Origin: an uncultured Planctomycetales bacterium
GTDB taxonomy: Bacteria > Omnitrophota > Gorgyraeia > Zapsychrales > Fredricksoniimonadaceae
DNA length: 64,000 nt
Reading direction: 5' to 3'
Assembly: GCA_964583975.1 (NCBI GenBank)
Contig: CAZOXU010000001.1
Location: 99,552 to 163,551 of the forward strand
The notes under the pieces are model-generated. The model worked only from the letters and a program-made list of their open reading frames with translations. It was not told where the DNA came from and searched no databases. Each line of letters begins with the position of its first letter. Within the stretch, counting starts at the first letter, position 1. A program made the translations under genes and the position numbers. Below, one piece after another: positions 9,984 through 49,629 of this stretch.

Positions 9984-9986
9984 ACT

Positions 9987-15145: not shown

Positions 15146-15219
15146 ATGGTCTCCTAGGATTTTGAATGGCAATATTATGAATTTAATTCTTTGAATAAAC
15201 AAGCCAAATTTTTGCCATA

Positions 15220-16014
15220 TTAGCCTTTATATTGGGCAAATAGCCTGTCGTTTTGCATCATTGCAACTGCATTTTTTAAGTCATCAATCGTATCTACACC
15301 TATGGTAGGCTGATCACAGCATACCGTACGCACCTTTACCCCCATCTCTAAAATACGCAACATATCGACCGATTCAGTCTTCTCTAAGCTAGTTCTTGGC
15401 CAGGCTGTAAATTGCAAAAGCGATTCTTTGCGATAAGCGTTAATTCCATACTGTTTATAGACCGGCATAGGGGCATTTTTATCGGATTTTTTGGCTGAAG
15501 GAATAGGTTCCCGCGAATAATAAAGGGCATTGTTAAATTTATCAACGACAACTTTGACAACATTAGGACTGGTGAAATCCGCCATATTGGTAATAGGCCC
15601 AATCATGTCTGTATACTGAACATTGCGATCATTTAATAATGGCTGTATCAATTGGTCTAAAGATTCTGGTTGGACAAATGGCATATCTCCTTGAACATTA
15701 ATGATGATATCAGCCTTTAATTTCTGTGCTGCTTCGGTCACTCGGTCTACACAACTTTCATGGGTTGCAGATGTCATAACCGCCTTACCCCCAAAACGTT
15801 GCACCTCATCAACAATTTCCTTATCACAGGTAGCTACCACCACATCATCCATTAAGGTTGATCGCATCACACGGCGTCTGACGTGTTCAATCATAGATAA
15901 ACCCATAATTTGGGCCAAAGGTTTGCCTGGAAAACGGCTGGACGCCATGCGGGCAGGTATGATAGCAACAACAGACATTAGGATTTCCATTTTTTGAGAT
16001 AAGCTTTTTTCCAT
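15220..16014 (-). CDS. CMP-ulosonic acid synthetase family cytidylyltransferase (KdsB/NeuA-like)
   Basis: 'AIIPARMASSRFPGKPLAQIMGLSMIEHV' matches the KdsB N-terminal signature (IPAR..S.R.PGKPL). Confidence 0.75.
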   Translation of the reverse strand: MEKSLSQKMEILMSVVAIIPARMASSRFPGKPLAQIMGLSMIEHVRRRVMRSTLMDDVVVATCDKEIVDEVQRFGGKAVMTSATHESCVDRVTEAAQKLKADIIINVQGDMPFVQPESLDQLIQPLLNDRNVQYTDMIGPITNMADFTSPNVVKVVVDKFNNALYYSREPIPSAKKSDKNAPMPVYKQYGINAYRKESLLQFTAWPRTSLEKTESVDMLRILEMGVKVRTVCCDQPTIGVDTIDDLKNAVAMMQNDRLFAQYKG

Positions 16015-17860: not shown

Positions 17861-18618
17861 TTCTTAATTAACTTTAATCCCTCTCTACATTGATCTCCTA
17901 ATAAAAGAAAATCAACACTGTAAGCGATAAACCTAAAGCCTTTTTTAATTTTATCTTTAACCATACGAGTGTCTGTTGGGACACAATGAATACCTGCAGT
18001 TACACCCTTTTCCTTGGCTTTCAACATAATCCTCTTTAAAGCTGCGATTAATTTGGGGTTTTCAAACTCGCCGGCAATTCCCATCGATCCAGAAAGATCA
18101 TAAAGTCCAACTAGAAAGCCATCAATTCCTTGCACAGCAAAAATTTTATCGAGATTTTCCACAGCTTCGATATGTTCGATTTGAACAATAACGACGCTTT
18201 CGTTCTTGACCCATCGTTTATATTCATTAAATGTAGTGCCATACCCTTGAGCTCGTGAAAGGCCGATGCCTCTAGTTCCTTCTGGCGGATATTTAACAGC
18301 GTTAACAGCTTTTTGAGCTTCCTGAGCCGTGTTCACCATGGGAACGATGACCCCCGTGGCCCCCGCATCCATCACTCTTTTAATTAAGGTAGGATTATTA
18401 TCCCCGACTCGTACCAAAGCTGGGATACCACATAAATCAATGGTTTGAATAAGTTTCATGGCATGCTGGACGGTTAAAGCAGAGTGTTCCATATCCACCG
18501 CCAACCAATCAAAACCTGCTTTAGCCATAATTTCAGCAATGCAAGTATCGGTCATGGTAATCCATGATCCAATGGTCAGTTGATTTTTCTTAAGTTTTTG
18601 TTTGAGTGAAGCTTTCAT
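17857..18618 (-). CDS. HpcH/HpaI-family class II (pyruvate-dependent) aldolase
   Basis: 'LTIGSWITMTDTCIAEIMAKAGFDWLAVDMEHSA' is a typical HpaI/RhmA-type TIM-barrel start. It contains 'VRV' and 'IEHIEAVEN'. Confidence 0.75.
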   Translation of the reverse strand: MKASLKQKLKKNQLTIGSWITMTDTCIAEIMAKAGFDWLAVDMEHSALTVQHAMKLIQTIDLCGIPALVRVGDNNPTLIKRVMDAGATGVIVPMVNTAQEAQKAVNAVKYPPEGTRGIGLSRAQGYGTTFNEYKRWVKNESVVIVQIEHIEAVENLDKIFAVQGIDGFLVGLYDLSGSMGIAGEFENPKLIAALKRIMLKAKEKGVTAGIHCVPTDTRMVKDKIKKGFRFIAYSVDFLLLGDQCREGLKLIKK

Positions 18619-20513
18619 CGGATACTCACAGATTTATCTTCGATGGCTCCTGAAGGAAGATATCCCTGCCCTTTCTTAAGATTTGAATTTAATAAAAAGA
18701 CCTTTAAATTTTCTTCTGACGGTTGTGTAAAATATTCATTCAAGACTTGTTGGGCCATCTGTTCAAAACCAAGTTTATCTTGGGCATTCATCGTTTCGAT
18801 CCAACGAATCTGATTTTTCAATTCCAATGGTGCAACTACTGGCTTTAAAGCATATCCTTTTAGATGAAATGGATCATGATAAATCGCATTATCTGGAATA
18901 ACACGTATCACTGGGACCGCCATCATCATGGCTTCTAAAATAGCAATTGATCCACCAGTTGTTACAACAGCATGTGTCAGAGTCAAACTTTCCTGAATCG
19001 GCCGTGGCTGATCAAATTCCCAATGCGAAAGATTCAGCGTTTCAAGGAATCGTAAAATTCGATCCTTTGATAGTAACGGATGCATTCTAACAACCACTTT
19101 ATACTCGTTGCTATCTTGCAAAGCTGCTTTTAACTTTGTAAATAATTCAAAAGCCAAATCATAGCCAAATGTCAATGGTAGCAAAAGCATTTTCTTAGCA
19201 TCAGAAACCCCACTAGATCGGCGTATTGTCTTATAAACTGCCGCAAAACGCAAGTTGGATCCCATGACTATGCGCTCTTGAGGAAATCTTGCTTCGATAT
19301 GTAATTGTCTGTATTTAGGACCAGAACATATAATCTGATCTGGCAAAGGATGATCTTTCCACTCTCCATCTGCGAGATGATAGGTCAGTTGATTGCCGAA
19401 AAATGTTGTGTGTTGGAATCCTATGATTTTAGAATCTGGATAATATTGGCGGCACGCCAAGATAAAAGGATTCTCAGAAGCATTACATTCAAATGGATAG
19501 TAGAAAGCATCGACTTCGAATCCTCTTTCACTTAATCGTTTCAGGGTGGGTACACACAAATTAAGAATGGATAGGTGAACGTTGAATCCTGCCTTCTTTA
19601 ACACCTCATTAAAAATAGGACTCACATCCAGACCTGCGATTTGGACATTAGTGATAACACGATTAAATCCCTGATAACTGCTCTTAAGTACTCCCAAATA
19701 ATCTGAAAGTTTCAGATATTGTTCAGGCATCACTAATTTCAGATTTTGCGCTTTTAATTTCTGGATGATAACGCTTAAGGGTGATTTTAGATTAAAAAAT
19801 GTCGGAAGAAGCAAAACTTCATACTGTTTGTCCTCTAACCAGGAAGCAAGCTCTCCAAAATTTCGATCATTGTATTTCCCAGAAGCACTAAATGTATCTT
19901 CAGTTATCCAGCTTCGAAGAACCACTCTCTTAGATGCCTCGGTCTTACTTTTCAAGGACATTTCTAGATTATTTGACACAGCCAGTTTATTGCGAAGATT
20001 AATCCGAATAAAATTAAGAATTTGAGCAAGGTAATAAAACTGATGCTGGATTGGCTCAAGCAGTCTTTTGAATAGACTTGTTCGCCATTTGATATCTAGA
20101 TTTAAAGAATGACCATATTCCACAATACACTTAGACAAAACCATGCTATCGGTAATGAAAACAATGTCGCTTTGGGATTGCGCGATAATTTTCTTGGCAC
20201 AGATCAAATAAAGAATATTCTGGGTCAAAGGCGTAGCGGTCGTGCTTTTGGTAGAAACTTGATTGGCCCACCACTCCAACGAATGATTGGCCGTATTAAC
20301 TCGATGATACAACTTAAGTAGATCTTCTTTATACTCTTGGAAGGTTGTATCTAACATTTCCCCCAGAGTTCGAATTTCTCCTGGTATCTGGGATTTTAAT
20401 TGAACCAATCTTTCCCAATCATTAGATAAATACCAGCACGTAACGTCCTTACCCATAAATTTAGGGAGAAGTCCTGATAAATTAAGATGATCTATTACGG
20501 TAATTCTCTTCAT
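18615..20513 (-). CDS. Large conserved hypothetical protein, possibly a GT-B-like or capsule-type transferase
   Basis: 632 aa with no sharp motif. The C-terminal 'HAVVTTGGSIAILEAMMMAVPVI' resembles a GT-B C-domain. Confidence 0.4.
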   Translation of the reverse strand: MKRITVIDHLNLSGLLPKFMGKDVTCWYLSNDWERLVQLKSQIPGEIRTLGEMLDTTFQEYKEDLLKLYHRVNTANHSLEWWANQVSTKSTTATPLTQNILYLICAKKIIAQSQSDIVFITDSMVLSKCIVEYGHSLNLDIKWRTSLFKRLLEPIQHQFYYLAQILNFIRINLRNKLAVSNNLEMSLKSKTEASKRVVLRSWITEDTFSASGKYNDRNFGELASWLEDKQYEVLLLPTFFNLKSPLSVIIQKLKAQNLKLVMPEQYLKLSDYLGVLKSSYQGFNRVITNVQIAGLDVSPIFNEVLKKAGFNVHLSILNLCVPTLKRLSERGFEVDAFYYPFECNASENPFILACRQYYPDSKIIGFQHTTFFGNQLTYHLADGEWKDHPLPDQIICSGPKYRQLHIEARFPQERIVMGSNLRFAAVYKTIRRSSGVSDAKKMLLLPLTFGYDLAFELFTKLKAALQDSNEYKVVVRMHPLLSKDRILRFLETLNLSHWEFDQPRPIQESLTLTHAVVTTGGSIAILEAMMMAVPVIRVIPDNAIYHDPFHLKGYALKPVVAPLELKNQIRWIETMNAQDKLGFEQMAQQVLNEYFTQPSEENLKVFLLNSNLKKGQGYLPSGAIEDKSVSIR

Positions 20514-20517
20514 AGAT

Positions 20518-22326
20518 TTAAGTTACCTTGGCCATCTTACGAAACTGCTGATTATTCTCTAAAAGTTGCTGATAGGTCCCTTGCTCAACAATCTTTCCTT
20601 TTTCTAAAAGGTAAATCACATCACATTCCTTGACCGTACTTAGTCGATGCGCAATGATCACAATAGTCTTCTTATGGGCTAAACGATTAATGGCCTCTAA
20701 AATAACGTCTTCCGTAATTCCATCCAAGGCGCTTGTGGCTTCATCAAATACAATGACCGAAGGATTTCGGTATAAGGCCCGTGCAATACCAATACGCTGT
20801 CTTTGTCCTCCACTTAAACGCACACCTCGCTCACCTACTTCCGTCGCATAACCGTTAGGCAATTCCTTTTCAATAAAATCATGGATATTAGCCATCTTAG
20901 CCGCTGCCTGTACAGCCTGCGCATCGATCTGATCATCAGGAATACCAAAGGCAATATTGCGCGTAACAGTATCATCACAAATATAAATATGTTGGGGAAC
21001 ATAACCTATATTTCGTTGCCACATCGGCAAATTATCTTCCGATATTCTTACGCCATCGACACGAATTTCACCGGCCTGAGGCGATAAAAGACCTAATAAA
21101 ATATCAATCACTGTTGTCTTTCCAGCCCCTGTACCGCCTACAAACCCAACAGTTGTGTTGTGCTTAATAACTAAATTAAAATTCTCAATCACATTGGTTT
21201 GAGCTTTAGGATATTTGAAATTGATACCGCGAAATTCAAACTCCTGATTAAAAGGCATTGTCTGATCAGGCCCTGTGGATTTTTCTTTCCTATAATCTTT
21301 GTAGTTAATCATATCCTCATACAAAGAATCTAAGGCAGATTGGCCAAAACGTATCGAACTAATCGATTGAAAAATTTGCTGTAAAGCCGGGATTAATCGA
21401 TAGGCAGCTAAGGTATATAAACCAATCATGGGCACGGCTTCTTGATAGTTTTTACTGATAACCACACAATAAACCGTGACCAATAAAAGCCCTCCAAAGG
21501 TCAACGATTCAAAAATGTAGCGTGGGGTCGTTGTAATTAAGGCTTGCGCCACATAACCATCGACTGTTTTAATCGCTGGCTGATAAAATCGGTCAATAAA
21601 GATATTCTCTTTACCTAAAAGCTTAATATCTTTAACGCCACCAAAAGCCTCATTAATGACTCTAAACATGGTTGCTGTATGCGCCCTATTGGTAGCCCCT
21701 ATGGAAGCTAGCTTATTTCTAAAACAAAAATAAATAAGCCCATATCCTCCACCCATCACAGTCAATACAATGCCCGTTACTACAGGATTGACAACTACTA
21801 ATAAAATAATGACCGTTGCAACAAACACAGTCTTGGCAAACATTTCAAGCGAAGGAATCAGGACATAACCAACCACTCTTCCTACCTCAGCCATTAAATG
21901 ATGGGTCAATCCCGCGCTGTTGCGGTTAAGAAAGAATGCATACGGTTCATAAAGGTATTGGGTCAATAATCGAGAAGCTATTGTTCCCTGCTGCGTCCAT
22001 GTCATACGTGTTAACACAGCCGTAGTCAGAGTGCGAAAAATATTGCTGGATATAAAAATAGCAAACATGGTGATGGCCAAGGCCACAATAAAGTCCGTGG
22101 CGTTTTGAAAACTAAAGAATTGATAACACCAGCGTAATTTATCATTAGTTTCAATAATGCTTGGAGTAGCCACCACTTTCAAAAAAGGAAAAATAGAGGC
22201 TACTCCCAACATATCTAAAAAGGCCACAAAGACCATCGCCACCGCCAGCCAGTAGAGCTTACGACGATCTTTTGGCATGATGATTCGATGTAACTTATGA
22301 TAAACATCAAAGCGGTGGATTTTCAA
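20518..22326 (-). CDS. ABC transporter, fused permease/ATPase type I exporter (MsbA/PglK-like)
   Basis: Six-TM N-domain, Walker A 'GGTGAGKTT', signature 'LSGGQRQRIGIARAL', Walker B 'IVFDEATSALD'. Confidence 0.85.
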   Translation of the reverse strand: MKIHRFDVYHKLHRIIMPKDRRKLYWLAVAMVFVAFLDMLGVASIFPFLKVVATPSIIETNDKLRWCYQFFSFQNATDFIVALAITMFAIFISSNIFRTLTTAVLTRMTWTQQGTIASRLLTQYLYEPYAFFLNRNSAGLTHHLMAEVGRVVGYVLIPSLEMFAKTVFVATVIILLVVVNPVVTGIVLTVMGGGYGLIYFCFRNKLASIGATNRAHTATMFRVINEAFGGVKDIKLLGKENIFIDRFYQPAIKTVDGYVAQALITTTPRYIFESLTFGGLLLVTVYCVVISKNYQEAVPMIGLYTLAAYRLIPALQQIFQSISSIRFGQSALDSLYEDMINYKDYRKEKSTGPDQTMPFNQEFEFRGINFKYPKAQTNVIENFNLVIKHNTTVGFVGGTGAGKTTVIDILLGLLSPQAGEIRVDGVRISEDNLPMWQRNIGYVPQHIYICDDTVTRNIAFGIPDDQIDAQAVQAAAKMANIHDFIEKELPNGYATEVGERGVRLSGGQRQRIGIARALYRNPSVIVFDEATSALDGITEDVILEAINRLAHKKTIVIIAHRLSTVKECDVIYLLEKGKIVEQGTYQQLLENNQQFRKMAKVT

Positions 22327-23212: not shown

Positions 23213-24325
23213 TTATATTAATTTAAAACTTTTCAACTGATACTCTCTGGAAAATCTTTTCTTAATACTGCCATTCGCAGGACCATAAGGAAGAATTAAA
23301 TGGACGGAAGAATCAAGTAGCGCCGGATTGATGACCGGTTTGCCTCTAAATCGTCTCGACTCATTCTTACTCTTCATATTTTCATCTACAAAGAATTCAA
23401 TTCGATTACCTAACACACTCTCTACAAACGCTGCAGTTGTTGTTGTTCCTAAAACACATGTCTTTGGCTGCGAAATTGTAAGCAATTGTCGTTTCACTCG
23501 GTCTAAATATTTCATGGTCCTATAAATGCTTGTATCTTTTTTGATCTGACTGGTCTTATTTGAAGATGTCGCTTGGGCTATGGCAACGATATCTCTAGGG
23601 AAATGCTCATTGGGCAATAAAACCATATCAAAACCAGCCTTATGAAGAACGTTCCTTAAAATAGACGGCGTAAAATAATAATACTGATCAGCCAAAAGGA
23701 TCGAACAAGGATTGTTAGTGACATCCGGCAACTGGATAAAGAGTTTGCCTTCTTTTTTTAACAATCGTCGAACATTCACCAATAGTCCTTGGATGTCCTT
23801 GATATAGATCATCGACAGGGACATACAAATCAAGTCAAACTCACCTTTAATCTTTGAAAGATCGGCTAAATGAAAAACAAAATTCTTTTTCGAAGGAAAA
23901 CATTTTTTTAAATGTCGATTAACATCAAAGCCATGAAATTCAGCTTTAGGAAAACGGCCATTTAACTCTAGTAACAATTCCCCCTTAAAGCATCCAATGT
24001 CTAATACCTTGGTCTCCTTGCTATTACGTAAAAACCCCTTTAGTAGTTCTCCTTGTAAAAAAAATCGTGTTACACGTCGATTAGGTTTCAATAAAAATGT
24101 CTGATTAGTGATCGGCGCCTTAGCATAGTCTAAACTTTCATAAATCTGAGCCTGCTTTTTCTCATCCGCCTCACTCATGATATTAATGAGCAACTGACAA
24201 TCCTTACACCGACCTATCATTCCACTTTTTCTATAATCTACAAAACCTAGATGTCTAAACAAAGTATACGGAAGTTTAATCAATTCTATTTTTGATCCCT
24301 GACAAAACGCGCACCTTTTACTCAA
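23213..24325 (-). CDS. SAM methyltransferase with N-terminal Zn-ribbon (TylCIII/NDP-hexose C-methyltransferase-like architecture)
   Basis: 'CAFCQGS...CKDCQLL' Cys pairs, followed by 'VLDIGCFKGELLLEL'. Confidence 0.6.
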   Translation of the reverse strand: MSKRCAFCQGSKIELIKLPYTLFRHLGFVDYRKSGMIGRCKDCQLLINIMSEADEKKQAQIYESLDYAKAPITNQTFLLKPNRRVTRFFLQGELLKGFLRNSKETKVLDIGCFKGELLLELNGRFPKAEFHGFDVNRHLKKCFPSKKNFVFHLADLSKIKGEFDLICMSLSMIYIKDIQGLLVNVRRLLKKEGKLFIQLPDVTNNPCSILLADQYYYFTPSILRNVLHKAGFDMVLLPNEHFPRDIVAIAQATSSNKTSQIKKDTSIYRTMKYLDRVKRQLLTISQPKTCVLGTTTTAAFVESVLGNRIEFFVDENMKSKNESRRFRGKPVINPALLDSSVHLILPYGPANGSIKKRFSREYQLKSFKLI

Positions 24326-25898
24326 GTTGACTTAAAACCTCCCCTATAGGTAATAAAGCTGCATGTTTTCTTAAGAAACTTCGTCCGATTCTGCTATTGA
24401 CCGTAACTTTTTCATCAGCATAAGCCTTTCCTACTTCAGCCATGGCTGCCTTGAACCTCTCTTGCAAGATTTCATCTTCATCCACATATTTTAAAGTGCC
24501 CTTGCACTTATCTAACATTTCTTCCACCACTGCTTTTATTTCTTCAGCTGAATTTCTTATAACTTCTAATCCCATGGTGTCATAGGTGTACTGTTCGCAA
24601 GCAGCTCCCACAGGTGGACTCACCAATTCTTCAAAGTTTAAATATCTTTTTTCTAGCGAATGCCAACAGAGCCCGGGTAAGAATAAATCCTTCGCTGATA
24701 AACAATAGATAGCATGTGCAGGTAAAAGATTTGTTACAACTGCCGGAACGCCAAAAGCAACTGATACCATAAAATAACCAGAAGAAGTACCAACCACAAA
24801 ACGACATTGTGACGACAAAAAGACATCCATCCAATCACTTTTGAGATTGCTGTGAGCATAATCAATCACATGCGACATTTTCTTTAACGGTTTCATCGAA
24901 GGATCACCCATACGAATCACCCATCCTCCCGCAGACACAATCGATTCAATAGCAGGAATATAGGTATCGATATCCGCATTACGGTAATCTTCTACAAGAG
25001 ATTTTTCATGCCATCCTGCTTCTCGGACATGAAAACATACAAACCATGCAGTCTCAGGAACTCCCAATAATTTTAAATTCTGCCAGCCACGATTAAAGTC
25101 TTCTTGGGTTAACGTCAATAAAGGAGGTCGGTTTTCTTTATCCCATTGCTCCTGCACAATCCCAATGGCCGTATGACTAACAATGACTTCATCGCGCAAT
25201 TTCATAGCGTAATTAAAAGGATAGTCCAAAGCTTTTTCCAAAGGTTCCAAGGTCTCAATAGTTTGCGGATCAGTAATAACGGTGATGTATTTACTCCAAT
25301 AATTGAGGTAGCATCGATTATTGATCTTGGTATTAGGAGGCAAAAGCAAAATCATTTTCTTTAAAGGACGCCAACCAAGGAGTGCTGCCATCACATAGGT
25401 GCTAAGCGTTTCGTAAAGACCAATAGAACCACTTACAAGGATTCGTGGCACAAATTCAACGTTTAAGTTATCTAATTGATGAGATTTCAAAAGATAAAAT
25501 CTTGTTCTTTCAAAATCTTTAAAAACGACTCTATGCTTCTGGTATTCTCCGCTAAAAAAATATAATACCGCAAGACCTACATTAGCAGCTGCCCAAGAAG
25601 ACATATTTTCTAAATCTGGTGTTCTAGCAACTGTCTTTCTTAATATCTCTTCTGCTTTTCTTTGCGCCCTAACCAAGGATTCGCCCTCAACCCTCTGGGT
25701 ACGCAGTTTTCGGTAATCTTTTAATAACTTCACAGAAAGAAAATCGTATGCCTGAGGCCAATTAAGATTCCACTGTACAGCCAAACCTGCAAAAAGATTT
25801 AAAAGGAGCTTGTTTTTCCCATTAGAAATCTTTTGACTGAAAGCTCTCCAACCTCCCTTTTTGATCTGAAAAAATTGACGTTTAAGAAAAACAAACAT
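24318..25898 (-). CDS. Conserved protein of unknown function, paralog of 32520..33776 (TIGR04372-like putative glycosyltransferase)
   Basis: Shares the blocks 'VIDYAHSNLKSDWMDVFLSSQCRFVVGTSSG' and 'GLEVIRNSAEEIKAVVEEM' with 32520..33776. Confidence 0.45.
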   Translation of the reverse strand: MFVFLKRQFFQIKKGGWRAFSQKISNGKNKLLLNLFAGLAVQWNLNWPQAYDFLSVKLLKDYRKLRTQRVEGESLVRAQRKAEEILRKTVARTPDLENMSSWAAANVGLAVLYFFSGEYQKHRVVFKDFERTRFYLLKSHQLDNLNVEFVPRILVSGSIGLYETLSTYVMAALLGWRPLKKMILLLPPNTKINNRCYLNYWSKYITVITDPQTIETLEPLEKALDYPFNYAMKLRDEVIVSHTAIGIVQEQWDKENRPPLLTLTQEDFNRGWQNLKLLGVPETAWFVCFHVREAGWHEKSLVEDYRNADIDTYIPAIESIVSAGGWVIRMGDPSMKPLKKMSHVIDYAHSNLKSDWMDVFLSSQCRFVVGTSSGYFMVSVAFGVPAVVTNLLPAHAIYCLSAKDLFLPGLCWHSLEKRYLNFEELVSPPVGAACEQYTYDTMGLEVIRNSAEEIKAVVEEMLDKCKGTLKYVDEDEILQERFKAAMAEVGKAYADEKVTVNSRIGRSFLRKHAALLPIGEVLSQLE

Positions 25899-25899
25899 G

Positions 25900-27252
25900 T
25901 TATGAACTCACTTTTTGGATTAAAACATCTTTACTAGACGCTCTTGTAGTATCTGTGGACCAGTTAAACTTTGTTAACATTTCTTGAGGAATCATCCGCG
26001 TGGCTCGATCGATCTGAGCCGCAGTAAAATCCTTCTTCCATTCATCGACCCCTCCTGAACGCATACGTGTATTCTTTTTAAATTCAGGTGATTTGGGGTA
26101 AGTAAATTTTGATTCCTCAATGTCATAAAATTTAAGGATCTTTTGAAATAGTTCTTTAGGTTGAGCTACCAATTCTTCTTGAGTAACAAATAATATCTCC
26201 GGTTCAAATGTTGGATCTTTTTGTGCATCCATCCATGATTGAATCCATTTGATCGAGGCAGGTAAATAAAAATGATCAATTTGCCAAGAAATCTGATCTT
26301 CCAGAGACATAAGGAAATACCCATCAGGAATGTGTGATTCTAAAAGGCCTTCGATATTATTAATCGATCTCATATACGTGTTGATATAGTGCACGTAGGA
26401 AATCAACCCTTGGCGAGGATCACGAACATTGACAATCATACGATCTACGCACAAATTAAGAATAGCTAAATTAGAAGGTGCCCCTGAGGTATGATCCACT
26501 GAAAGCATATCTTCAATGGGTGCGGTGCTTAATGCATAATTAGGAAGCGGAACTGTAATGTCTGGATACCACCACCAGGTCGCAGGTGTAACCTGACCAA
26601 TATCTTCAGCTAATTTTAAACCTTCTTTGAGCGATGTCTGGATATAACCTGAAGCTGAACGATGCTGAGAAGCCACAAAAATAGGGCCAACCCCTCCCTG
26701 TGCACGACGCTGGAATATTCTTAACTTGGTGGCTTTATGAAAATAATGATTTGCTTCATTACGGTTTCCTTGGGCCATGAGAACCGCATTGCCTCTAATA
26801 AAATTGGCTTGCACAGAATCTGGAAATATTTCCACCATTTTCTTTGTACACGCCAGATGTTTCTCTACTGATGCCTGATCCAGAATTAAATTTCTATGAT
26901 CATGCATTCTATTACCTTTGCTATCTGTCCTTTTCTCTTGTCCATTATAGCGAACCAACATTTCTAATTTTAAATGAGCCTCTAGCAGATTCGGATCAAG
27001 AGCAATGGCCTTTTCACAGTGCTTAATTGCTTGGGCCAATTGATCCAATTTATAACAAACTTCCGCCATCTCCATCTGCGCCATGGCAGAGCCAGGGTGA
27101 GCTGCTATTTTCTTAGTCAATACGAATTTCTTTAAGCGATAAAGTAACTTTACGCACTTGCGACTCCAAGGAAGGAACTCTTTCCTGATGAATCGGATCA
27201 AGTCAGAAGGCAAATGTTTTAATAACCATAATCGCAAACTACGCTTCTTCAT
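25900..27252 (-). CDS. TPR-repeat / PAPS-dependent sulfotransferase fusion
   Basis: N-terminal TPR-like helices ('AIALDPNLLEAHLKLEM'). C-terminal sulfotransferase motifs: a 3'-PB-like 'VNVRDPRQGLISYVHY' and a terminal 'RMRSGGVDEWKKDFT' (cf. RKGxxGxWKxxFT). Confidence 0.65.
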   Translation of the reverse strand: MKKRSLRLWLLKHLPSDLIRFIRKEFLPWSRKCVKLLYRLKKFVLTKKIAAHPGSAMAQMEMAEVCYKLDQLAQAIKHCEKAIALDPNLLEAHLKLEMLVRYNGQEKRTDSKGNRMHDHRNLILDQASVEKHLACTKKMVEIFPDSVQANFIRGNAVLMAQGNRNEANHYFHKATKLRIFQRRAQGGVGPIFVASQHRSASGYIQTSLKEGLKLAEDIGQVTPATWWWYPDITVPLPNYALSTAPIEDMLSVDHTSGAPSNLAILNLCVDRMIVNVRDPRQGLISYVHYINTYMRSINNIEGLLESHIPDGYFLMSLEDQISWQIDHFYLPASIKWIQSWMDAQKDPTFEPEILFVTQEELVAQPKELFQKILKFYDIEESKFTYPKSPEFKKNTRMRSGGVDEWKKDFTAAQIDRATRMIPQEMLTKFNWSTDTTRASSKDVLIQKVSS

Positions 27253-27269: not shown

Positions 27270-29483
27270 TTATTCTTGGAATATTTCCTTGCCCGCATCA
27301 ATTTGGTTGATGATCAATTCTGATAAATCTTTACGCATAAACCATTCCGGAGGCAGATTTTTATCCATCAACATCTTTCGTCCTTGCGTTCCACTGATGG
27401 AAAGAATATCTTCTTGTTTATGGTCGCATGTCTCTACGTAACTTTCGCATTTGCGGCAATAATTGATTTCATTAAAGAAAATTGGTTCAATTCCAATATC
27501 TCCCAAGCTTTCAAATAATTGACGAACGCTATCTTTCTGATAGTACCCCTCGATCCCAGAATGATCGCGTCCCACCACAAAATGGCTGCAGCCATAATTC
27601 TTACGGCAAATCGCTGTAAATACTGCTTCTCTAGGGCCCGCATAGCGAGGGTAATTTAGCCAGGCTGCAAGCAAAACTTTATGAGCCGGATAATATTTGC
27701 TAATAATAATTTCATAGCTTTTTAGAATGATTTCAGAGAGATAATCGCCCTTCTTCTTTGGTCCAGACAAAGGGTGAATGAAAATGCCATCACAATGGTA
27801 TTTCTCGATGGCTGTCTTCTGGATGTGTTCGTGAACCCGGTGGGCTACATTGCGTGTATGAAAACCAATAATTCTCGACCAACCTTTATGCTCAAATATT
27901 TTTCGGACCTGCCTAGGCGTCATTTCAAACTGTTTGTTTTGAGAAGGCAGCCTTTTAATTAAAGTAATCTCTCCACCCAAAAAATGATTAGGTCGTTTTA
28001 AAATATCTTCAACACCAGGATGTTTAGAATCATTCGTACCAAATAACTGGCTGGTCAATTGTTGCAAATCATAGGTATATATATCTTTAATATCCAAGAT
28101 GGCATATACCAATCCATCATTCTTAAAACACAGAGCAACTTTCTGGCCAATACTTAATTGCTCAGCATTTTTCTGATCAATTTGTAAAACTATGGGCATG
28201 GGCCAGATGACACCCGTAGGAAGTTTAAAATCCTTCAATACCCCATCTAACTCTTCCTTGCTCATAAAGCCTTTAAGCGGAGAAAATGCTCCAATGGCAA
28301 TCTGCTCGGCATTAATCAAATCTTTTTCTTCGACTACAATCTTCTTGTATGCATTAATTAGCTCTAAATCAGGACTATCTTCATAGCGATGAATTAACTC
28401 TCCACCGTGAGGCTTAATCAAAAAAGAATGGTCGTCACTATCTAAATTCTCTAGAAAACCATTGGGTCCCTGACAATACTCATGGAATTGTTGCATCACA
28501 CGTGAAACCATGCTGGCGCATTCTACCGGATAGGAACCAATTGCTGTTTCCGCAGCCAAAACCAAACCATCGGCACCATCTACCAAGGTATTAAAAATAT
28601 CATTAACTTCAGCTCGAGTTGGATTAGACATAGTGATCATGGATTCCAATAAATTGGTAGCTACAAACATTTCCACATTAGCTTGCTTTGCTCTTCTAAT
28701 TATTTCTTTTTGCACCCTAGGGATTTGTTCGATCGGTACCTGCCTGGACATGTCTCCTCGATCCAACAAAAGGGCATGGCTACGACCTGCAATGGCTTCT
28801 AAATTCTTAATACCCATCAGTGATTCAATTTTAGAAATAATATAGGTCTGAGGAGCAACGTGCTTCTTTAGCTCATCGATATCTTCAGCTTTATTAGCAA
28901 AGGACAATGCCACATGTTTAATTCCCATCTTTTTGCCAATAGCAAATGCCTGGATATCTTTTTCTGTTAATGCAGGCAGGTCAATTTCACGATCTACACT
29001 GACAGCTTTATTACGTCCAATAAAGCCGCCGGTCAAAACCTTAATCACCAAACCATTTTGGTCCTTAGCAATCACCTTGACCAAAACAGAATTAAAATCA
29101 ATGCTGACAATGTCTCCGACTTCTATTTTGTCAACGCAATCTAAAGGATACAAATTAAATGAACTACCGCTTCCCTCAACTGCTTGTCTTGGTATTTTGA
29201 TGATTTGATTTTCTTCCAACAGGATTTTAATATCAAGGAAGTCTCCTGTTCTAATCTGTGCGCCTTCGCTGTCTAAACACACAGGGACCTTGGTCCTGGA
29301 CTGAATAAACTTAATCACTTCTGGAAGATCTTTAATCTTAGTATGCGAAAGATTGATCCGAAAAAGACTGACCCCCACATCAGTTAATCGCGCAATGACA
29401 CGATCATTCATTGATGCAGGACCTAAAGTGCATAATATTTTTTTCGGCACACTCATATTGAAGATATTCTTTCCTTTAAGCAC
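27270..29483 (-). CDS. Pyruvate kinase catalytic domain fused to ATP sulfurylase (sulfate adenylyltransferase)
   Basis: PK N-terminal part: 'KILCTLGPAS', 'RINLSHT', 'IISKIES', 'LLDRGDM', 'ATNLLESMITMSNPTRAEVNDIFN'. ATP sulfurylase C-terminal part: 'LIKPHGGELI', 'GFHTRNVAHRVHE', 'VVGRDHSGIEGYY'. Confidence 0.8.
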   Translation of the reverse strand: MLKGKNIFNMSVPKKILCTLGPASMNDRVIARLTDVGVSLFRINLSHTKIKDLPEVIKFIQSRTKVPVCLDSEGAQIRTGDFLDIKILLEENQIIKIPRQAVEGSGSSFNLYPLDCVDKIEVGDIVSIDFNSVLVKVIAKDQNGLVIKVLTGGFIGRNKAVSVDREIDLPALTEKDIQAFAIGKKMGIKHVALSFANKAEDIDELKKHVAPQTYIISKIESLMGIKNLEAIAGRSHALLLDRGDMSRQVPIEQIPRVQKEIIRRAKQANVEMFVATNLLESMITMSNPTRAEVNDIFNTLVDGADGLVLAAETAIGSYPVECASMVSRVMQQFHEYCQGPNGFLENLDSDDHSFLIKPHGGELIHRYEDSPDLELINAYKKIVVEEKDLINAEQIAIGAFSPLKGFMSKEELDGVLKDFKLPTGVIWPMPIVLQIDQKNAEQLSIGQKVALCFKNDGLVYAILDIKDIYTYDLQQLTSQLFGTNDSKHPGVEDILKRPNHFLGGEITLIKRLPSQNKQFEMTPRQVRKIFEHKGWSRIIGFHTRNVAHRVHEHIQKTAIEKYHCDGIFIHPLSGPKKKGDYLSEIILKSYEIIISKYYPAHKVLLAAWLNYPRYAGPREAVFTAICRKNYGCSHFVVGRDHSGIEGYYQKDSVRQLFESLGDIGIEPIFFNEINYCRKCESYVETCDHKQEDILSISGTQGRKMLMDKNLPPEWFMRKDLSELIINQIDAGKEIFQE

Positions 29484-31053
29484 CCGTAAAGTGATCTGTT
29501 GCTAAATGTCCTGTTGCTCGATTAATCAAAAACCAATTGCCATTAAAATTCGTGGTGGGATGCTCGAACCAGACAACCGCAGCCTCATTCATCGAATCTC
29601 CAATCTTTTTGATCAAATCATCACCATGAATCGTAGAAATACCATCAGGAATATTCAAAGGATAATTGTTAAACACATGCTCAGTTCCCTTATCCGTAAA
29701 AATTCGTAAATTAATGGTCTTATCTGGATTTGTTCGAGCTCCACCTGCAGTCGCTAAGGCATAAATACTTCGAAATTCCTTAAATAAAGGCGCCATTTTT
29801 AAACAGCGATAAGATTTAGGTAGGCCACAGGAATCATTATGGTAGCCAAAAGAATATTGGGTATGAACCTGATCAGCAAAGCTCTCTCCCCGGCGATAAT
29901 ATAAATGCAGATAACATGGAGGTTTTTGTTCAAACTCATTTTGATCGCGCTGAAAATCGACCACAAAATAAACACCGCCTTTGATCTGTTTTCCCTCAAA
30001 GACCTTAGCCAAATCAAAACCCAGCTCTTCATCACTTAATGTAACAAATTTCTCTCCTAACAATTCACCAGACTCTCGATACCCCTTGATCAAGAAGGAT
30101 CGGGTTTGAAAACCAATTTCTTCTTCATTCACATTAATCAGTGGAGCATTAAGTTCAAAATCTGGTACATAAAAAGCAGTGACACAAGATTGTACGGTTT
30201 TCTCCTTTGATGGAATATGTCGAATGTTCTTCATATGGCCTGAACAGTTATCATGCCAAAGAGTTGTTGGATCGCCACTCTCATCATGCACGATACAAAA
30301 ACCCATTGATCCTTTAATAGGCCCTTGGCTTTGGGCTCTTCTAAAAGCACCCTTGGCCCCCTCAGTCTGAAGAACTTGGTAGGGATCAGCAAAGTTACAA
30401 TAATAGGCTAGCTGCTGCCCTGGAATAAATGCACGGTAGCAAAATTCATCACGTTTGACATAAGGCTTCAAAAGAACAGGTATCGAATGAATACCCGAAA
30501 TCGTACCTTTGGCCGTATTGTTGAGAAACATAAAAAAACGAAATTCATTACCTGGGGTTTTAAGCCGAGGATGAAAGGCTTCTAACATCACAATTCCCTG
30601 CTTTGGTAAGGCGTTCTGGTCAGCCTCCTGGGTAAAGTTCTTAAGATATTTAACTTCATTAGGGGCCAAAAGATATTGTTTAGACCAAAAACACTGCTCA
30701 CCTACCAAGATAGACAAACGAATGAGGATAGGATCACGAAGGCCATAGTTACGTTGCAAAAAGTTAAAAATCAAAATATCTGTCATGCCTCTATGATAGG
30801 GAACATGAACCGAGGCTCGAGGAACCGAAACATCCGGAACAATTTGTTCAGGCGTCTTCTTACCATAATAAATATTAAATAACTCAGGCAATATTTTGGA
30901 GGCGGCAACGCTCTTGGCTGCAGAGTGTTCTTTTAAATAATATTGCTCGGTAAGGGTTGGATTATACCCAGGGCAGGCCTTGAAAAACTTGACCGCTAAC
31001 TTCTCAGCATTGCTCTTTCCTATAATCCTTGAAACCATTTCGAATTTTTGCAT
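29476..31053 (-). CDS. Hypothetical protein (525 aa), no recognisable motif
   Basis: Long uninterrupted ORF, co-directional, with an 8-nt overlap with the upstream gene. Cys/His-rich and probably soluble. Confidence 0.5.
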   Translation of the reverse strand: MQKFEMVSRIIGKSNAEKLAVKFFKACPGYNPTLTEQYYLKEHSAAKSVAASKILPELFNIYYGKKTPEQIVPDVSVPRASVHVPYHRGMTDILIFNFLQRNYGLRDPILIRLSILVGEQCFWSKQYLLAPNEVKYLKNFTQEADQNALPKQGIVMLEAFHPRLKTPGNEFRFFMFLNNTAKGTISGIHSIPVLLKPYVKRDEFCYRAFIPGQQLAYYCNFADPYQVLQTEGAKGAFRRAQSQGPIKGSMGFCIVHDESGDPTTLWHDNCSGHMKNIRHIPSKEKTVQSCVTAFYVPDFELNAPLINVNEEEIGFQTRSFLIKGYRESGELLGEKFVTLSDEELGFDLAKVFEGKQIKGGVYFVVDFQRDQNEFEQKPPCYLHLYYRRGESFADQVHTQYSFGYHNDSCGLPKSYRCLKMAPLFKEFRSIYALATAGGARTNPDKTINLRIFTDKGTEHVFNNYPLNIPDGISTIHGDDLIKKIGDSMNEAAVVWFEHPTTNFNGNWFLINRATGHLATDHFTGA

Positions 31054-32519: not shown

Positions 32520-33776
32520 CTACACTTGATTTATAGACGAATTAAAGGCATTTTTCGATTCATTTAAATCTTGTAAATATTGATATTTTTCCAAAAACAA
32601 TGCCCCTATTCTGGAATAATTATGCGGGCCGTGCACACCATTTGTAAAAGGGAAATCTCCCCAGAATTGCGACTGTAACTCTTCTTGTTCTTCGGTAGTT
32701 TTCCATTGACCCTTTAAACGTTCTTCCATTTCTAAGACTACATCACGAATCTCTTCAGGAGAGTTTTTGATCACCTCTAATCCTTGATCTTCAAACATCT
32801 TGGTCTGTACACCATATCTGATATTTTCATTTAACATTTCTTTAAAACTCAAAAGTCTGCCATCTTTCTTGTTTCTCAAAAGTTTGAGAATGCTTAAGAA
32901 TTGATCTGACCAGGTAAAGAGAAAACCAACGGGAATAACATTGATATAAACAACCGGTTTTCGGAAAAGTCTGGCCACAGCTTCAATACCGCCCTCTCCG
33001 ACAAAGAAATGACACTTGGAAATTAAATAGATATCAGCAAAATCACTTCTAAAAGAGCTGTTGGCATAATCAATGACTTGCGGATGAACCAACGGAAACT
33101 TCTCTTCAACAACTCGCCCCATACGAATGATGTAATAACCTCGAGCTATCAACTCTTGAGCTGCCAATACAAAATCTGCAACAGGAAAATTACGATAATG
33201 ATGATAGCTCCAATCTCGGCCAGGGCTATGCTGACTTAAATACAAGCCATCGCGTCCTTGAATACAAACAAACGGCGTTCCTTTGGGAATGCCCATGCAA
33301 CGCAATAAGGTCTCACCCTGCTCTTGTTCGGAAGGAGTAAAAGTAACCTGAGGTGGAGTTTTATACGTTAAAGAAAAAATATCCCTGCTCTGAAAGGTGC
33401 GCCACTTATGAAGATGTGCTTTTCCACCAGGAACTTTTATATTGATTCGAAAAACCCAATAGGCCAAATTTGATACAGGTAAAACTCGACTCCATAACTT
33501 CACCATCTGCTTATTGACCTTGTTGGGACGATTAGGAAAGAAAATATTGATGGCTTGTGGCTGATGCATACCCATTTTTCTTTCTAAAACATAGGTATCT
33601 AACTCTCCAGCTGCATGTCCAATGCGATCTTTGATAGGAATAAGCCGCACCAAAACAAATGGACGGAGAATTCGCATCAACACAACACAAGGCAAGGCTA
33701 AAAACAAGACTGGAATTTTAGGCACTACGACTGATACTAACCATTGAAATGAATATTTAGGTGGAACACTCGACAC
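32520..33776 (-). CDS. Conserved protein of unknown function, paralog of 24318..25898 (TIGR04372-like putative glycosyltransferase)
   Basis: 'VIDYANSSFRSDFADIYLISKCHFFVGEGG' and 'GLEVIKNSPEEIRDVVLEM' are shared with 24318..25898. It lies immediately downstream of an FkbM methyltransferase. Confidence 0.45.
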   Translation of the reverse strand: MSSVPPKYSFQWLVSVVVPKIPVLFLALPCVVLMRILRPFVLVRLIPIKDRIGHAAGELDTYVLERKMGMHQPQAINIFFPNRPNKVNKQMVKLWSRVLPVSNLAYWVFRINIKVPGGKAHLHKWRTFQSRDIFSLTYKTPPQVTFTPSEQEQGETLLRCMGIPKGTPFVCIQGRDGLYLSQHSPGRDWSYHHYRNFPVADFVLAAQELIARGYYIIRMGRVVEEKFPLVHPQVIDYANSSFRSDFADIYLISKCHFFVGEGGIEAVARLFRKPVVYINVIPVGFLFTWSDQFLSILKLLRNKKDGRLLSFKEMLNENIRYGVQTKMFEDQGLEVIKNSPEEIRDVVLEMEERLKGQWKTTEEQEELQSQFWGDFPFTNGVHGPHNYSRIGALFLEKYQYLQDLNESKNAFNSSINQV

Positions 33777-34780: not shown

Positions 34781-35503
34781 CTACCAAGGAATTGGACTGC
34801 CATCATAGTTATAAAATACGCCGTTTTTCTCCGGAGTAAATGCGCTAATAATATTTCGCATCGATTGTATGCTATGCTCCACGGTTATGTCTGCCCTGTT
34901 CCCTACCCTTTCTGTCTTTACAAATCCTGGATGCATCACAATGACGCTAATACCCATTGGCGTATAATCAAACGCCAAACTTTGAGTAACAGCATTTAAA
35001 GCTGCTTTTGAAGAGCGATAAATATAAGTTCCCCCACGCACATGATGCGGCAATTTTCCTCGTTCAGCCAAAGATCCAGCTCGGCTGGATATAAAAACTA
35101 TCTTTTTTTCACGACTACGTTTGACTAAATCAAAAAACATCTCAGTAAATTTAATCGTCGAAAAAAGATTCGTATGCATCACTTCAGTCCATCTTTGAAT
35201 ATCAAGGTGACCAAAGGTAGCTTTCTCATCCTCCGGTCCTCGAATTGCCGCGTTATTCAAAAGAACATCAATACTTTCATCTTTGATCTGATTTCTCACC
35301 TGCTCTACGGCCTTGATATCAGTGATATCCAAACGAAACAAGTGCAGATCACCTTTTAATGACTTAAGCTCACCAGCCAACTCTTCTTTGCGATAGGTTC
35401 CATAAACGCGACATCCATCATTTAGATACTGCCGCGCAAACTCTAATCCAAGTCCACTATTAGCACCAGTTATAAAGATATTTGACTTCGCAACATTCTT
35501 CAT
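34781..35503 (-). CDS. Short-chain dehydrogenase/reductase (SDR)
   Basis: 'IFITGANSGLGLEFARQY', 'NNAA', 'YRSSKAALN'. Confidence 0.8.
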   Translation of the reverse strand: MKNVAKSNIFITGANSGLGLEFARQYLNDGCRVYGTYRKEELAGELKSLKGDLHLFRLDITDIKAVEQVRNQIKDESIDVLLNNAAIRGPEDEKATFGHLDIQRWTEVMHTNLFSTIKFTEMFFDLVKRSREKKIVFISSRAGSLAERGKLPHHVRGGTYIYRSSKAALNAVTQSLAFDYTPMGISVIVMHPGFVKTERVGNRADITVEHSIQSMRNIISAFTPEKNGVFYNYDGSPIPW

Positions 35504-36744
35504 TTGCTATAGATTTTCCACTCTGGAAGAAAAACAACAAACTTCCCACCATTTTCCAGGAATTTTTGGTGGCGTTTTAAAATGGGATCAATATAACGCC
35601 AAGAAAACACTATGACATAATCTGGTTTTTTCTCATATAAAACATCTGAAGAATATGCTGCGAGATGGTGCCCTGGCGTAAATAAATTAAATCGATCTGG
35701 ATTATCATCAACCACATACTCAAGCTTATCTCCTAAATCAAATAAGTGCGCCAAGGTCGTTATGCCTACAGAAGCGCCATAAGCGGCAATCGTCTTACCT
35801 TGTTTTTTCCATCCTGAAATTTCAGAATGAAGACGTTTATGCGTCTGTTCAATAAATTGATTAAATGGCCCAAAAGCTTCAATTTGATCAATTCCCTTAC
35901 TCTTTTCCAAAGCAATCATCTGAGCTACGGATGGCTGAACCTTCCTTGGCCCATTTCTTCTTTGCACATAATTACGAATACATCCACCTTTAGAAACAGT
36001 ATGTTGAACATGGATCAATTCCAAATCAAATTTAGACAATGAACACTGAAGTGACTTTACTGTAAAATATGAAAGATGTTCATGGTGAATAACATCTAAA
36101 AGTCTTTTATCAACGGCGTCTAAGCCGTAGCCCGTTTCAAAAACAAAACATCCCTCTGGACTAAGAAGCTCTCTAATACCAAAAAAGAAATCCTCAAGTT
36201 CATCGATATTAGCCACCACATTATTGGCTGTAATCAACTGAGGCATTCCCCTTTTGTCTTTTAACTCTTTAGCTACCTTGGTAGTAAAGAATGTTTGTAT
36301 GGCTTCAATACCTGATTTATTAACAACCTGAGCAATCGGAGCAGGATCAATGCCTAACACCTTAAATCCGCGATCTTTAAAATACCGCAGCAAAGTCCCA
36401 TCATTGCAGCCAATATCAATAATGAACGCACCTGGTGCGGGCGCCACAAAACTCAAAACATCATCGGCATATTTCTTAAAATATTCGGTAAGACCATATG
36501 ATATTTCTGTTCGGTAGATATAGTTTGCATATAAAGTTTTTGGCGAAACCACATCCAATAACTGTACATTGCTACAAGAGTTGCACAGAAATAAATCTAA
36601 CAAGAAAGTCTTCTCTGTTTGCCCAAGTTCATCAGCTTTAATAAATATATCCCCTGGAGGCGTGGGAGCTAGTTGTGAACCCAATACAACCTTATCGCTT
36701 CCACACAGACGACAATTCTTTCTACGATAATAATCAATCTCCAT
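35500..36744 (-). CDS. NDP-hexose C-methyltransferase-like (TylCIII architecture: Zn-ribbon + SAM methyltransferase + C-terminal domain)
   Basis: 'CRLCGSD...CNSCSNVQL' Zn-ribbon and 'IIDIGCNDGTLLRYF'. Confidence 0.65.
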   Translation of the reverse strand: MEIDYYRRKNCRLCGSDKVVLGSQLAPTPPGDIFIKADELGQTEKTFLLDLFLCNSCSNVQLLDVVSPKTLYANYIYRTEISYGLTEYFKKYADDVLSFVAPAPGAFIIDIGCNDGTLLRYFKDRGFKVLGIDPAPIAQVVNKSGIEAIQTFFTTKVAKELKDKRGMPQLITANNVVANIDELEDFFFGIRELLSPEGCFVFETGYGLDAVDKRLLDVIHHEHLSYFTVKSLQCSLSKFDLELIHVQHTVSKGGCIRNYVQRRNGPRKVQPSVAQMIALEKSKGIDQIEAFGPFNQFIEQTHKRLHSEISGWKKQGKTIAAYGASVGITTLAHLFDLGDKLEYVVDDNPDRFNLFTPGHHLAAYSSDVLYEKKPDYVIVFSWRYIDPILKRHQKFLENGGKFVVFLPEWKIYSK

Positions 36745-40183: not shown

Positions 40184-40849
40184 TTATTCAAAATAAATAA
40201 ATTCATAATCACCGGTATAACCAAATTCTTTCGCTAACCATACCCAAGCCTCATTATCAAAAAACGCTTCAGCGGTTAACGCCCAACATTGCAAATTAAA
40301 TTGTTCTTGTTCATTGCGGTAACTTTCCACCATAAAAAACTTTTGCTTACCCAAGCGTTCAATTTCACCGAATGCCTTTTTTAAATCAAAAATACGTAAA
40401 TTGTGTAAACAGCCTAGTGAAATGACCAAATCAAAATATTTGTCTGGCCAGGGATAAGGAACATCTTGAGCTTTACGAATAGAAAGGCTCTTTTTTATTC
40501 CTTCAGGAGCATCAGCAATACCGTGTTTAGAAATATCAAAACCATGTAATTCCGCATTAGGAAGCAATTGCTTTAATTCATATAGCACATGCGCTTTACC
40601 ACAGCCAACATCCAAAATCTTACAACCATCTTTGAGATTATATTTCTTGATAAGCACTTCAGCGATAGGCTTCCATCGTCCATCATATTTGTAACCGCCA
40701 TAACCGTAACGGCGATCGCCATCCCAATAATCAGCTTCATACTCTTTGGCTTTGAGCATGCAATGGACCTTATCATCCACCATACGATCGAGATATTTTC
40801 TTGCTGTCTTCTTGTGCAACGGTGTAAAAACTTCAACAAAACTTCCCAT
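40184..40849 (-). CDS. Class I SAM-dependent methyltransferase
   Basis: 'ILDVGCGKAHVLYEL'. Confidence 0.65.
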   Translation of the reverse strand: MGSFVEVFTPLHKKTARKYLDRMVDDKVHCMLKAKEYEADYWDGDRRYGYGGYKYDGRWKPIAEVLIKKYNLKDGCKILDVGCGKAHVLYELKQLLPNAELHGFDISKHGIADAPEGIKKSLSIRKAQDVPYPWPDKYFDLVISLGCLHNLRIFDLKKAFGEIERLGKQKFFMVESYRNEQEQFNLQCWALTAEAFFDNEAWVWLAKEFGYTGDYEFIYFE

Positions 40850-40851
40850 AC

Positions 40852-41379: not shown

Positions 41380-41381
41380 AT

Positions 41382-49626: not shown

Positions 49627-49629
49627 GTT

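Follow-up and report, generated by a model that had tools for sequence, protein, structure and literature searches.

Does a long glycan locus from an uncultivated bacterium encode the means to sulfate its own product? We addressed this question for a stretch of 64,000 nt (the window; positions 99,552 to 163,551 of contig CAZOXU010000001.1, assembly GCA_964583975.1), using window coordinates throughout. The gene at 25900..27252 (minus strand) had been read in an earlier note, from the sequence alone, as a tetratricopeptide repeat (TPR) domain fused to a sulfotransferase that uses 3'-phosphoadenosine 5'-phosphosulfate (PAPS), and this fusion was borne out by Pfam matches, conserved motifs and model fold. 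Judged from sequence and model, the product (hereafter TPR-ST) is a genuine PAPS-type sulfotransferase. It is probably an active cytoplasmic enzyme whose target is a sugar of the surface glycan made by the locus, with O-sulfation more likely than N-sulfation; we infer the glycan acceptor from gene context.

The gene is the single open reading frame (ORF) at exactly these coordinates, starts with ATG, carries AGGAG 13 nt 5' of this start and encodes 450 aa. It is separated by 17 nt from the stop codon of the upstream gene, which encodes a pyruvate kinase (PK) fused to an ATP sulfurylase (PK-Sat), and 1 nt lies between its own stop and the ATG of the next downstream gene, a glycosyltransferase. 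A search of all six frames of the window revealed no second sulfotransferase, so TPR-ST is the sole one encoded there.

The sulfotransferase domain occupies aa ~186-431 (25960..26697). We found that Pfam Sulfotransfer_1 (PF00685) matches aa 271-425 clearly above its gathering threshold (37.2 bits vs. the curated cutoff of 22; E 2.8e-9), and PF00685 is listed in all precomputed Pfam annotations of TPR-ST relatives. Sulfotransfer_3 (PF13469, the NodH type) remained below threshold on TPR-ST (13.5 bits vs. a cutoff of 27; E 0.085).

Conserved residues were read from a close alignment (A1) of TPR-ST with 13 other proteins from a 5.8-billion-protein database and from a wide alignment (A2) of 28 TPR-less relatives of the sulfotransferase domain. 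H254, R277-D-P-R-Q281, S285, R398 and G400 are invariant in A1, and the family consensus in A2 is LPKSGS...H...VRDPRQAxLSW...FRxGxxxEWRxVFT. The 3'-phosphate-binding string quoted in the earlier note is present (RDPRQGLIS, aa 277-285); its R277 is invariant in A2 as well, and S285 is kept in at least 90% of A2. The quoted terminal string RMRSGGVDEWKKDFT was found at aa 396-410, where R398-S-G400-G-V-D-E-W405-K-K-D-F409-T410 matches the RKGxxGxWKxxFT pattern, with R398 and G400 kept in at least 90% of A2. Two elements had been overlooked in that first reading: the 5'-phosphosulfate-binding (PSB) loop HRSASG (aa 197-202), which follows a strand at 190-195 and aligns to the PKSG of the family and of mouse SULT7A1, and the putative catalytic base His254, which is invariant in both alignments and aligned with the His of the SULT 'THL'. 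As a profile, A2 matched SULT7A1 in the PDB at 5e-11, and its motifs each align with their SULT7A1 counterparts (PKSG, THL, RNPKDTAVS for the R277/S285 motif, and FRKGVVGDW).

The PSB loop of TPR-ST has Arg for Lys and Ala for Gly. Since a KSAS variant is present in several other family members, the Gly-to-Ala change appears to be tolerated. In addition, HRSAS is common to the closest homologs of TPR-ST. Hence, the loop is a variant shared within the family, not a sign of decay.

An AlphaFold model computed with A1 (14 sequences) is confident (mean predicted local distance difference test (pLDDT) score 85.1; predicted template modeling (pTM) score 0.80) and shows the PAPS-sulfotransferase fold. 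It comprises helices 2-13 and 16-51, six TPR-type helices at 56-184, and at 190-430 one alpha/beta domain with a central parallel sheet, like that of solved sulfotransferases. Foldseek on the model detected the TPR part only. The nearest solved folds are small-molecule sulfotransferases, namely cytosolic SULTs, StaL and the olefin-synthase sulfotransferase.

The N-terminal ~150 aa had been taken as TPR-like as a whole, which holds for aa ~52-185 (26698..27099) and fails for the first ~51 aa (27100..27252), a basic amphipathic helical segment according to composition, hydrophobic moment, model and homolog conservation. The TPR part was matched by Pfam TPR_2 (E 2.3e-9; 37.1 bits vs. a cutoff of 27) and TPR_1 (31.1 bits vs. 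27.8), phmmer against the PDB returned consensus TPR proteins at 4e-22, and the tandem 34-residue helix-turn-helix is seen both by profile and by fold. It consists of ~3 repeats and a capping helix, and is most like the peptide-binding TPRs of OGT, Pex5, HOP and MamA. An insertion of ~20 aa between TPR helices (aa ~105-125, approx. 26878..26940; consensus DSKGNxLFDHRTY) splits the repeats; it is strongly kept in the ten closest homologs, missing from the Microcoleus relatives, and modeled as a low-confidence beta-hairpin.

Within aa 1-51, we counted 16 K/R against 2 D/E (pI 11.5); the helical hydrophobic moment (muH) is 0.5-0.6, the net charge +5 to +8 and the maximum KD19 hydropathy 1.06, and the cationic pattern is kept in close homologs. 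A transmembrane anchor was ruled out, as TPR-ST has no hydrophobic segment, and no signal peptide was found in the protein. Hence, with its cationic amphipathic helix, TPR-ST is predicted to be cytoplasmic and close to the membrane. By sequence, this helix has the signature of an in-plane membrane-binding helix and is a probable peripheral membrane or partner contact. That the TPRs dock onto the assembly machinery, as the earlier note proposed, is plausible. However, the high pTM implies that their orientation is fixed against the catalytic domain, so, going by the model, they might shape the acceptor site and line its groove instead of serving as a free docking arm.

Is PAPS supplied by the locus itself? 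The sulfurylase and adenosine 5'-phosphosulfate (APS) kinase named in the earlier note were both confirmed by Pfam and NCBIfam. For the first PAPS step, PK-Sat (27270..29483, minus strand) combines a PK barrel (Pfam 1.4e-63), PUA_2 (1.8e-41) and ATP sulfurylase (3e-73), and scores above the cutoff of the NCBIfam sulfate adenylyltransferase model. Its PK part aligned full length with solved pyruvate kinases (2e-50) and retains RxNxSH, SKIE, RGD, ATxxLESM and PTRAE; the C-terminal regulatory domain is missing. The true start of PK-Sat is probably Met10 (about nt 29456), which is where the database copy of 728 aa begins. The second step belongs to an APS kinase, CysC (40852..41379, minus strand), recognized by Pfam APS_kinase (4.2e-42) and by NCBIfam TIGR00455 (157.7 bits vs. 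a cutoff of 138.7).

The gene that had been called CysQ-like instead encodes an IMPase/SuhB-type phosphatase (11909..12652, minus strand; Pfam Inositol_P 7.7e-50), which lies under the cutoff of every NCBIfam model and whose best PDB match is IMPase (1e-38, compared to 5e-11 for CysQ). Since it belongs to the IMPase superfamily, it is a possible phosphatase of adenosine 3',5'-bisphosphate (PAP), a weak assignment; in this glycan setting, a role as sugar-phosphate phosphatase is just as possible. We found neither CysH (PAPS reductase) nor a sulfite reductase in the ORFs of the window, and the adjacency of Sat and sulfotransferase recurs in related loci; assimilatory sulfate reduction was therefore rejected as the reason for Sat and CysC. 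Hence, the PAPS genes appear to serve sulfation, and the recurring adjacency argues that their PAPS supply is dedicated to the locus.

The immediate downstream neighbor of TPR-ST (24318..25898, minus strand) is a TIGR04372-family glycosyltransferase with a helical N-domain and a GT-B fold that, in the model, is most similar to WaaC/WaaF, i.e. to the heptosyltransferase-like glycosyltransferase family 9 (GT9). A second TIGR04372-family glycosyltransferase, of the 418-aa type (32520..33776, minus strand; NCBIfam 2.2e-67), is 31% identical to the first, and in the related loci L003, L057 and L058 its orthologue immediately precedes either TPR-ST or the PK-Sat/TPR-ST pair. In all, a TIGR04372 homolog adjoins the sulfotransferase in L003 (an Omnitrophota locus), L057, L058 and all Microcoleus loci; the latter contain several copies of each gene, and the proteins of both kinds have long TPR arrays. 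This synteny had gone unnoticed in the earlier note, as had the recurrence of PK-Sat beside sulfotransferases of other glycan loci. We also listed the neighbors, up to three genes to either side, of the sulfotransferase gene in 49 loci with relatives of its sulfotransferase domain; those that recur are TIGR04372/TPR proteins (18 loci), nucleoside diphosphate (NDP)-sugar dehydratases/epimerases (12) and DegT aminotransferases (6). Our literature search on TIGR04372 found nothing relevant. Two ORFs of ~525 aa that flank the Sat/sulfotransferase pair were tested as paralogues and are not.

The Microcoleus tandem arrays (L012, 3091-15495; L009, 8990-19544; L006, 7718-16042) hold two TPR-sulfotransferases (the longest 1172 aa) along with two or three TPR-TIGR04372 proteins (the longest 1345 aa). 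Such arrays suggest that the sulfated extracellular polysaccharide (EPS) typical of cyanobacteria is made through more than one sulfation/glycosylation step or on a scaffold of several enzymes.

Genes for a heptose-type nucleotide sugar lie at 48094..51257 (minus strand; Pfam), comprising a nucleotidyltransferase+PfkB fusion, an epimerase and a SIS/GmhA-like isomerase, and their homologs accompany sulfotransferase homologs in L033, L036 and L017. They may provide the donor for the GT9-like transferases. As a lead, the partner could be a heptosyltransferase and the sulfated residue a heptose.

The nearest named relative of TPR-ST is MBF0523084.1 (42% identity), a 'sulfotransferase domain-containing protein' of Ca. 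Omnitrophota nDJH15bin6, followed by Microcoleus/Oscillatoriales proteins (31-36% identity), named 'tetratricopeptide repeat protein' in Microcoleus; the Omnitrophota and Microcoleus alignments span 85-94% of TPR-ST. These relatives share its family, architecture and TIGR04372 neighbor, and they carry automatic annotation only; the Microcoleus versions differ by much longer TPR arrays and by arrays of paralogues. Among Chlamydiales, Planctomycetota, Alphaproteobacteria and other groups, the domain has relatives without TPRs. Searched exhaustively, the catalytic domain yielded 1,017 cluster representatives, 676 of them with E at or below 1e-10, and an N-terminal extension of at least 100 aa is present in 65 of the best 150 catalytic-domain relatives. 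A scan of genome contigs with the TPR-ST protein alone gave no relative, and literature searches on bacterial TPR-sulfotransferases and on Omnitrophota sulfotransferases found nothing relevant.

The glycan setting claimed in the earlier note is supported, as the window encodes NDP-sugar enzymes, glycosyltransferases, NeuB, a cytidine monophosphate (CMP)-transferase and an ABC exporter. All 58 ORFs of at least 150 aa are on the minus strand, GC is ~0.39 across the window, and between 20 and 34 kb promoter- or terminator-like sites show no excess over shuffled sequence. Hence, TPR-ST lies inside a very long co-directional array, in which operon boundaries are not definable. The exporter (20518..22326, minus strand; Pfam ABC_membrane and ABC_tran) is of the PglK/MsbA type, with fused transmembrane and nucleotide-binding domains, and is likely a flippase for a lipid-linked glycan; its best NCBIfam models are PglK, then HepA and MsbA, all below cutoffs, and its orthologues have the same relative position in L001 (72% identity) and L003 (57%).

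Taking these results together, we propose the following route. PK-PUA-ATP-sulfurylase would make APS, from which the APS kinase of the locus would make PAPS; the fused PK domain plausibly regenerates ATP from ADP using phosphoenolpyruvate (PEP), and the IMPase-family phosphatase may clear the by-product PAP. Held at the inner face of the membrane by its cationic amphipathic N-terminal helix, TPR-ST would sulfate an undecaprenyl-linked oligosaccharide in concert with the TIGR04372 GT9-like transferase, a partnership suggested by synteny, and this transferase probably adds the sulfated residue or its neighbor. The three TPRs, packed on the catalytic domain, may be in contact with the partner glycosyltransferase or else belong to the acceptor groove. 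The PglK-type ABC transporter would then export the sulfated glycan. We infer the order of these steps from the gene content of the locus.

Several points weigh against this route. CysC is 13.6 kb upstream of TPR-ST and the phosphatase is likewise ~13 kb off; moreover, the latter is not a CysQ orthologue (TIGR01331 90.7 bits vs. a cutoff of 228.8). The Omnitrophota relative L003 has no PK-Sat within 10 kb. The PSB loop H-R-S-A-S-G departs in sequence from the canonical PKSGTT, so a reduced or altered activity is possible. By analogy, the TPRs of OGT-like enzymes recognize proteins, not glycans, and as the GT9 fold includes protein heptosyltransferases (TibC), a protein-linked target is also possible.

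The last two points lead to the strongest rival, namely that the TPRs recognize a protein (an S-layer protein, pilin, flagellin or adhesin), as in OGT, and that the enzyme sulfates either a protein-linked glycan, with the GT9-like neighbor as a protein glycosyltransferase like TibC/AAH, or directly a Tyr/Ser side chain. The likeness of the TPR part to peptide-binding TPRs is consistent with this, as are the occurrence of TPST and TibC among the fold matches, the long TPR arrays of both Microcoleus proteins, and the nonulosonic-acid genes of the locus (NeuB, 55511..56548; PseG-like, 56545..57588; CMP-transferase, 15220..16014; all minus strand), which are typical of protein glycosylation islands. 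However, the window holds no candidate acceptor protein, no Maf/FlmG-type gene and no flagellar gene, and the PglK-type exporter together with the Wzy_C-like and GT-C proteins also encoded there suits lipid-linked assembly. Furthermore, the neighbor matches WaaF/WaaC-type GT9 enzymes better than TibC, and the window protein has just ~3 TPRs. We consider a protein target unlikely.

Slightly less probable still is that a soluble nucleotide sugar (e.g. a CMP-nonulosonate or an NDP-heptose) or another small metabolite is sulfated before transfer. The closest solved folds are indeed small-molecule sulfotransferases, and in the window, L055 and L056, CMP-sugar synthetase genes accompany the cassettes of PK-Sat, CysC and sulfotransferase. 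However, the tight and repeated pairing of TPR-ST is with a glycosyltransferase and not with a nucleotide-sugar enzyme, and the amphipathic membrane-type helix suits a lipid-linked acceptor. To our knowledge, all characterized carbohydrate sulfotransferases (NodH, Stf0 and the heparan sulfate enzymes) act after glycosyl transfer.

Finally, it is very improbable that the altered PSB loop, which differs from the family consensus LPKSGS at three of six positions, has abolished PAPS use and left a scaffold or regulator, since Arg for Lys is normal in bacterial sulfotransferases (NodH, Stf-type), the KSAS variant recurs across the family, the other catalytic and PAPS residues are all invariant, and a sulfate-activation gene is translationally adjacent in three separate lineages. 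Hence, sulfation of a lipid-linked surface glycan by an active enzyme is our preferred reading.

To place the PAPS genes of this sulfation route in a wider setting, we followed PK-Sat beyond the window. PK-Sat is found directly upstream of TPR-ST in a JGI metagenome contig (L001/L002, 49% identity; PK-Sat at 7763-9958 of L001) and in L058 (60% identity; 642-2843). A cassette of PK-Sat, CysC and a sulfotransferase of another subfamily is present in two unrelated genomes, an Omnitrophota metagenome-assembled genome (MAG) with a Sulfotransfer_1 enzyme (L055; PK-Sat at 8001-10181) and one with a Sulfotransfer_3 enzyme (L056; 8001-10172), each surrounded by CMP-sugar and further glycan genes. Metagenomes contain at least 120 full-length PK-PUA-Sat clusters (51-82% identity), whose annotation reads just 'sulfate adenylyltransferase' or 'pyruvate kinase'; in one relative (P0251, 879 aa), an APS-kinase domain is fused on as well. 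Our literature search on a pyruvate-kinase/ATP-sulfurylase fusion found nothing relevant.

These loci allow a broader and tentative proposal, which we hold to be possible although doubtful: PK-PUA-Sat would be a PEP-driven PAPS module in a portable cassette, combined here with a TPR-ST/TIGR04372 complex that installs a sulfated heptose-type residue. The PK domain of the cassette would recycle ADP from APS kinase or otherwise couple PEP to sulfate activation, and the cassette would have reached glycan loci in MAGs of Omnitrophota, Nitrospina, Deltaproteobacteria and Bdellovibrionales; in the complex, TPR-ST and the TIGR04372 protein would be physically joined via their helical-repeat N-domains. 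If both parts are true, sulfated surface glycans are common in uncultivated non-cyanobacterial phyla. The fusion for PAPS supply could also aid the engineering of sulfated polysaccharides, where PAPS regeneration is the bottleneck.

The remainder of the window adds further sugar-modifying genes, all of those listed with coordinates being on the minus strand: a B12-radical SAM protein (13580..15202), sugar C-methyltransferases (35500..36744), and a carbamoyltransferase cut at the window end (62961..63980). Besides these, we found at least nine other methyltransferases, a WbuC cupin, a formyltransferase, an ATP-grasp protein and rmlA/B-like genes. Both TIGR04372 and TIGR04326, which are present in the window, are family models first described from Leptospira O-antigen regions. 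No Pfam family was found at E 0.5 for six ORFs of 326-681 aa (29476..31053, 57585..59630, 59645..61642, 18615..20513, 1918..3057 and 61833..62813, minus strand). Of the six, 18615..20513 alone has a weak TIGR04326 match, below cutoff, and a homolog of 57585..59630 (30% identity) comes immediately after the PK-Sat/APS-kinase pair in the Omnitrophota locus L055 (10714-12858).

A module at 40184..44841 (minus strand) comprises a split transketolase (N and C halves), an APH-family kinase, a small weakly HAD-like protein and a methyltransferase. Modules of this type recur beside sulfotransferase/TIGR04372 genes in cyanobacterial and other loci (L006, 1162-6658; L009, 2493-7929; L013, 2-5110; L017; L028), and in the window the APS kinase is inserted within the module. 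From these components, the module may make a sugar that is branched or extended by two carbons.

A sulfated surface glycan is thus predicted from the locus for an uncultivated lineage, with Omnitrophota as its nearest named relatives. The acceptor is known for very few polysaccharide sulfotransferases. PK-Sat, CysC, TPR-ST and the GT9-like transferase constitute a compact module that could be expressed heterologously. In addition, ~1,000 database cluster representatives of this sulfotransferase subfamily become linked to glycan biosynthesis. The TPR-ST result overturns no existing concept; more novelty lies in two leads, the PK-Sat cassette and the conserved pairing of sulfotransferase and glycosyltransferase.

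How does this system compare with those already known? The earlier note had called such glycans rare in bacteria. One paper regards sulfated bacterial glycans as essentially confined to cyanobacteria (PMC8205485), and according to a 2024 review, six bacterial genera have sulfated polysaccharides (PMC11625862); still, rarity was somewhat overstated, given the sulfated EPS clusters of cyanobacteria (PMC8205485) and the capsular polysaccharide (CPS) clusters of marine Vibrio (PMC11641403). The synechan xss cluster of Synechocystis has the sulfotransferases XssA/XssE within a polysaccharide cluster (PMC8205485), and the CPS cluster of Vibrio sp. KMM 8419 has cysNDC and three sulfotransferases, the presence of PAPS genes with sulfotransferases being, according to its authors, a hallmark of sulfated polysaccharide synthesis (PMC11641403). 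As in both clusters, the sulfotransferase of our locus is embedded among polysaccharide genes, and as in Vibrio KMM 8419, ATP sulfurylase and APS kinase are in the same glycan cluster. In contrast, our locus has a monomeric Sat fused to PK and not CysDN, and its sulfotransferase carries TPRs and is paired with a TIGR04372/GT9-like transferase; that its glycan is sulfated is a prediction.

At the level of the enzyme, TPR-ST is just 14-18% identical to SULT1B1, SULT3A1, SULT7A1 and StaL/Teg12. It adds an amphipathic helix and TPRs to their fold, its acceptor-binding loops are unrelated, and it lies in a glycan locus, whereas SULTs and StaL/Teg12 belong to xenobiotic and antibiotic metabolism. 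NodH, LpsS, KpsS and Stf0 are closer in role, as bacterial PAPS-dependent cytoplasmic enzymes that sulfate sugars of surface glycoconjugates; however, they have no TPR and other partner genes, and NodH is of the Sulfotransfer_3 type. The arrangement of an N-terminal TPR part followed by a nucleotide-dependent transferase is shared with OGT/GT41 and Xanthomonas XCC0866, whose TPR parts are structurally similar, although there the catalytic domain is GT-B and here it is a sulfotransferase, and TPR-ST has only ~3 repeats. Hence, the system is of the same kind as the described clusters; its TPR fusion, its Sat-PK fusion, its TIGR04372/GT9-like partner and its uncultivated lineage set it apart.

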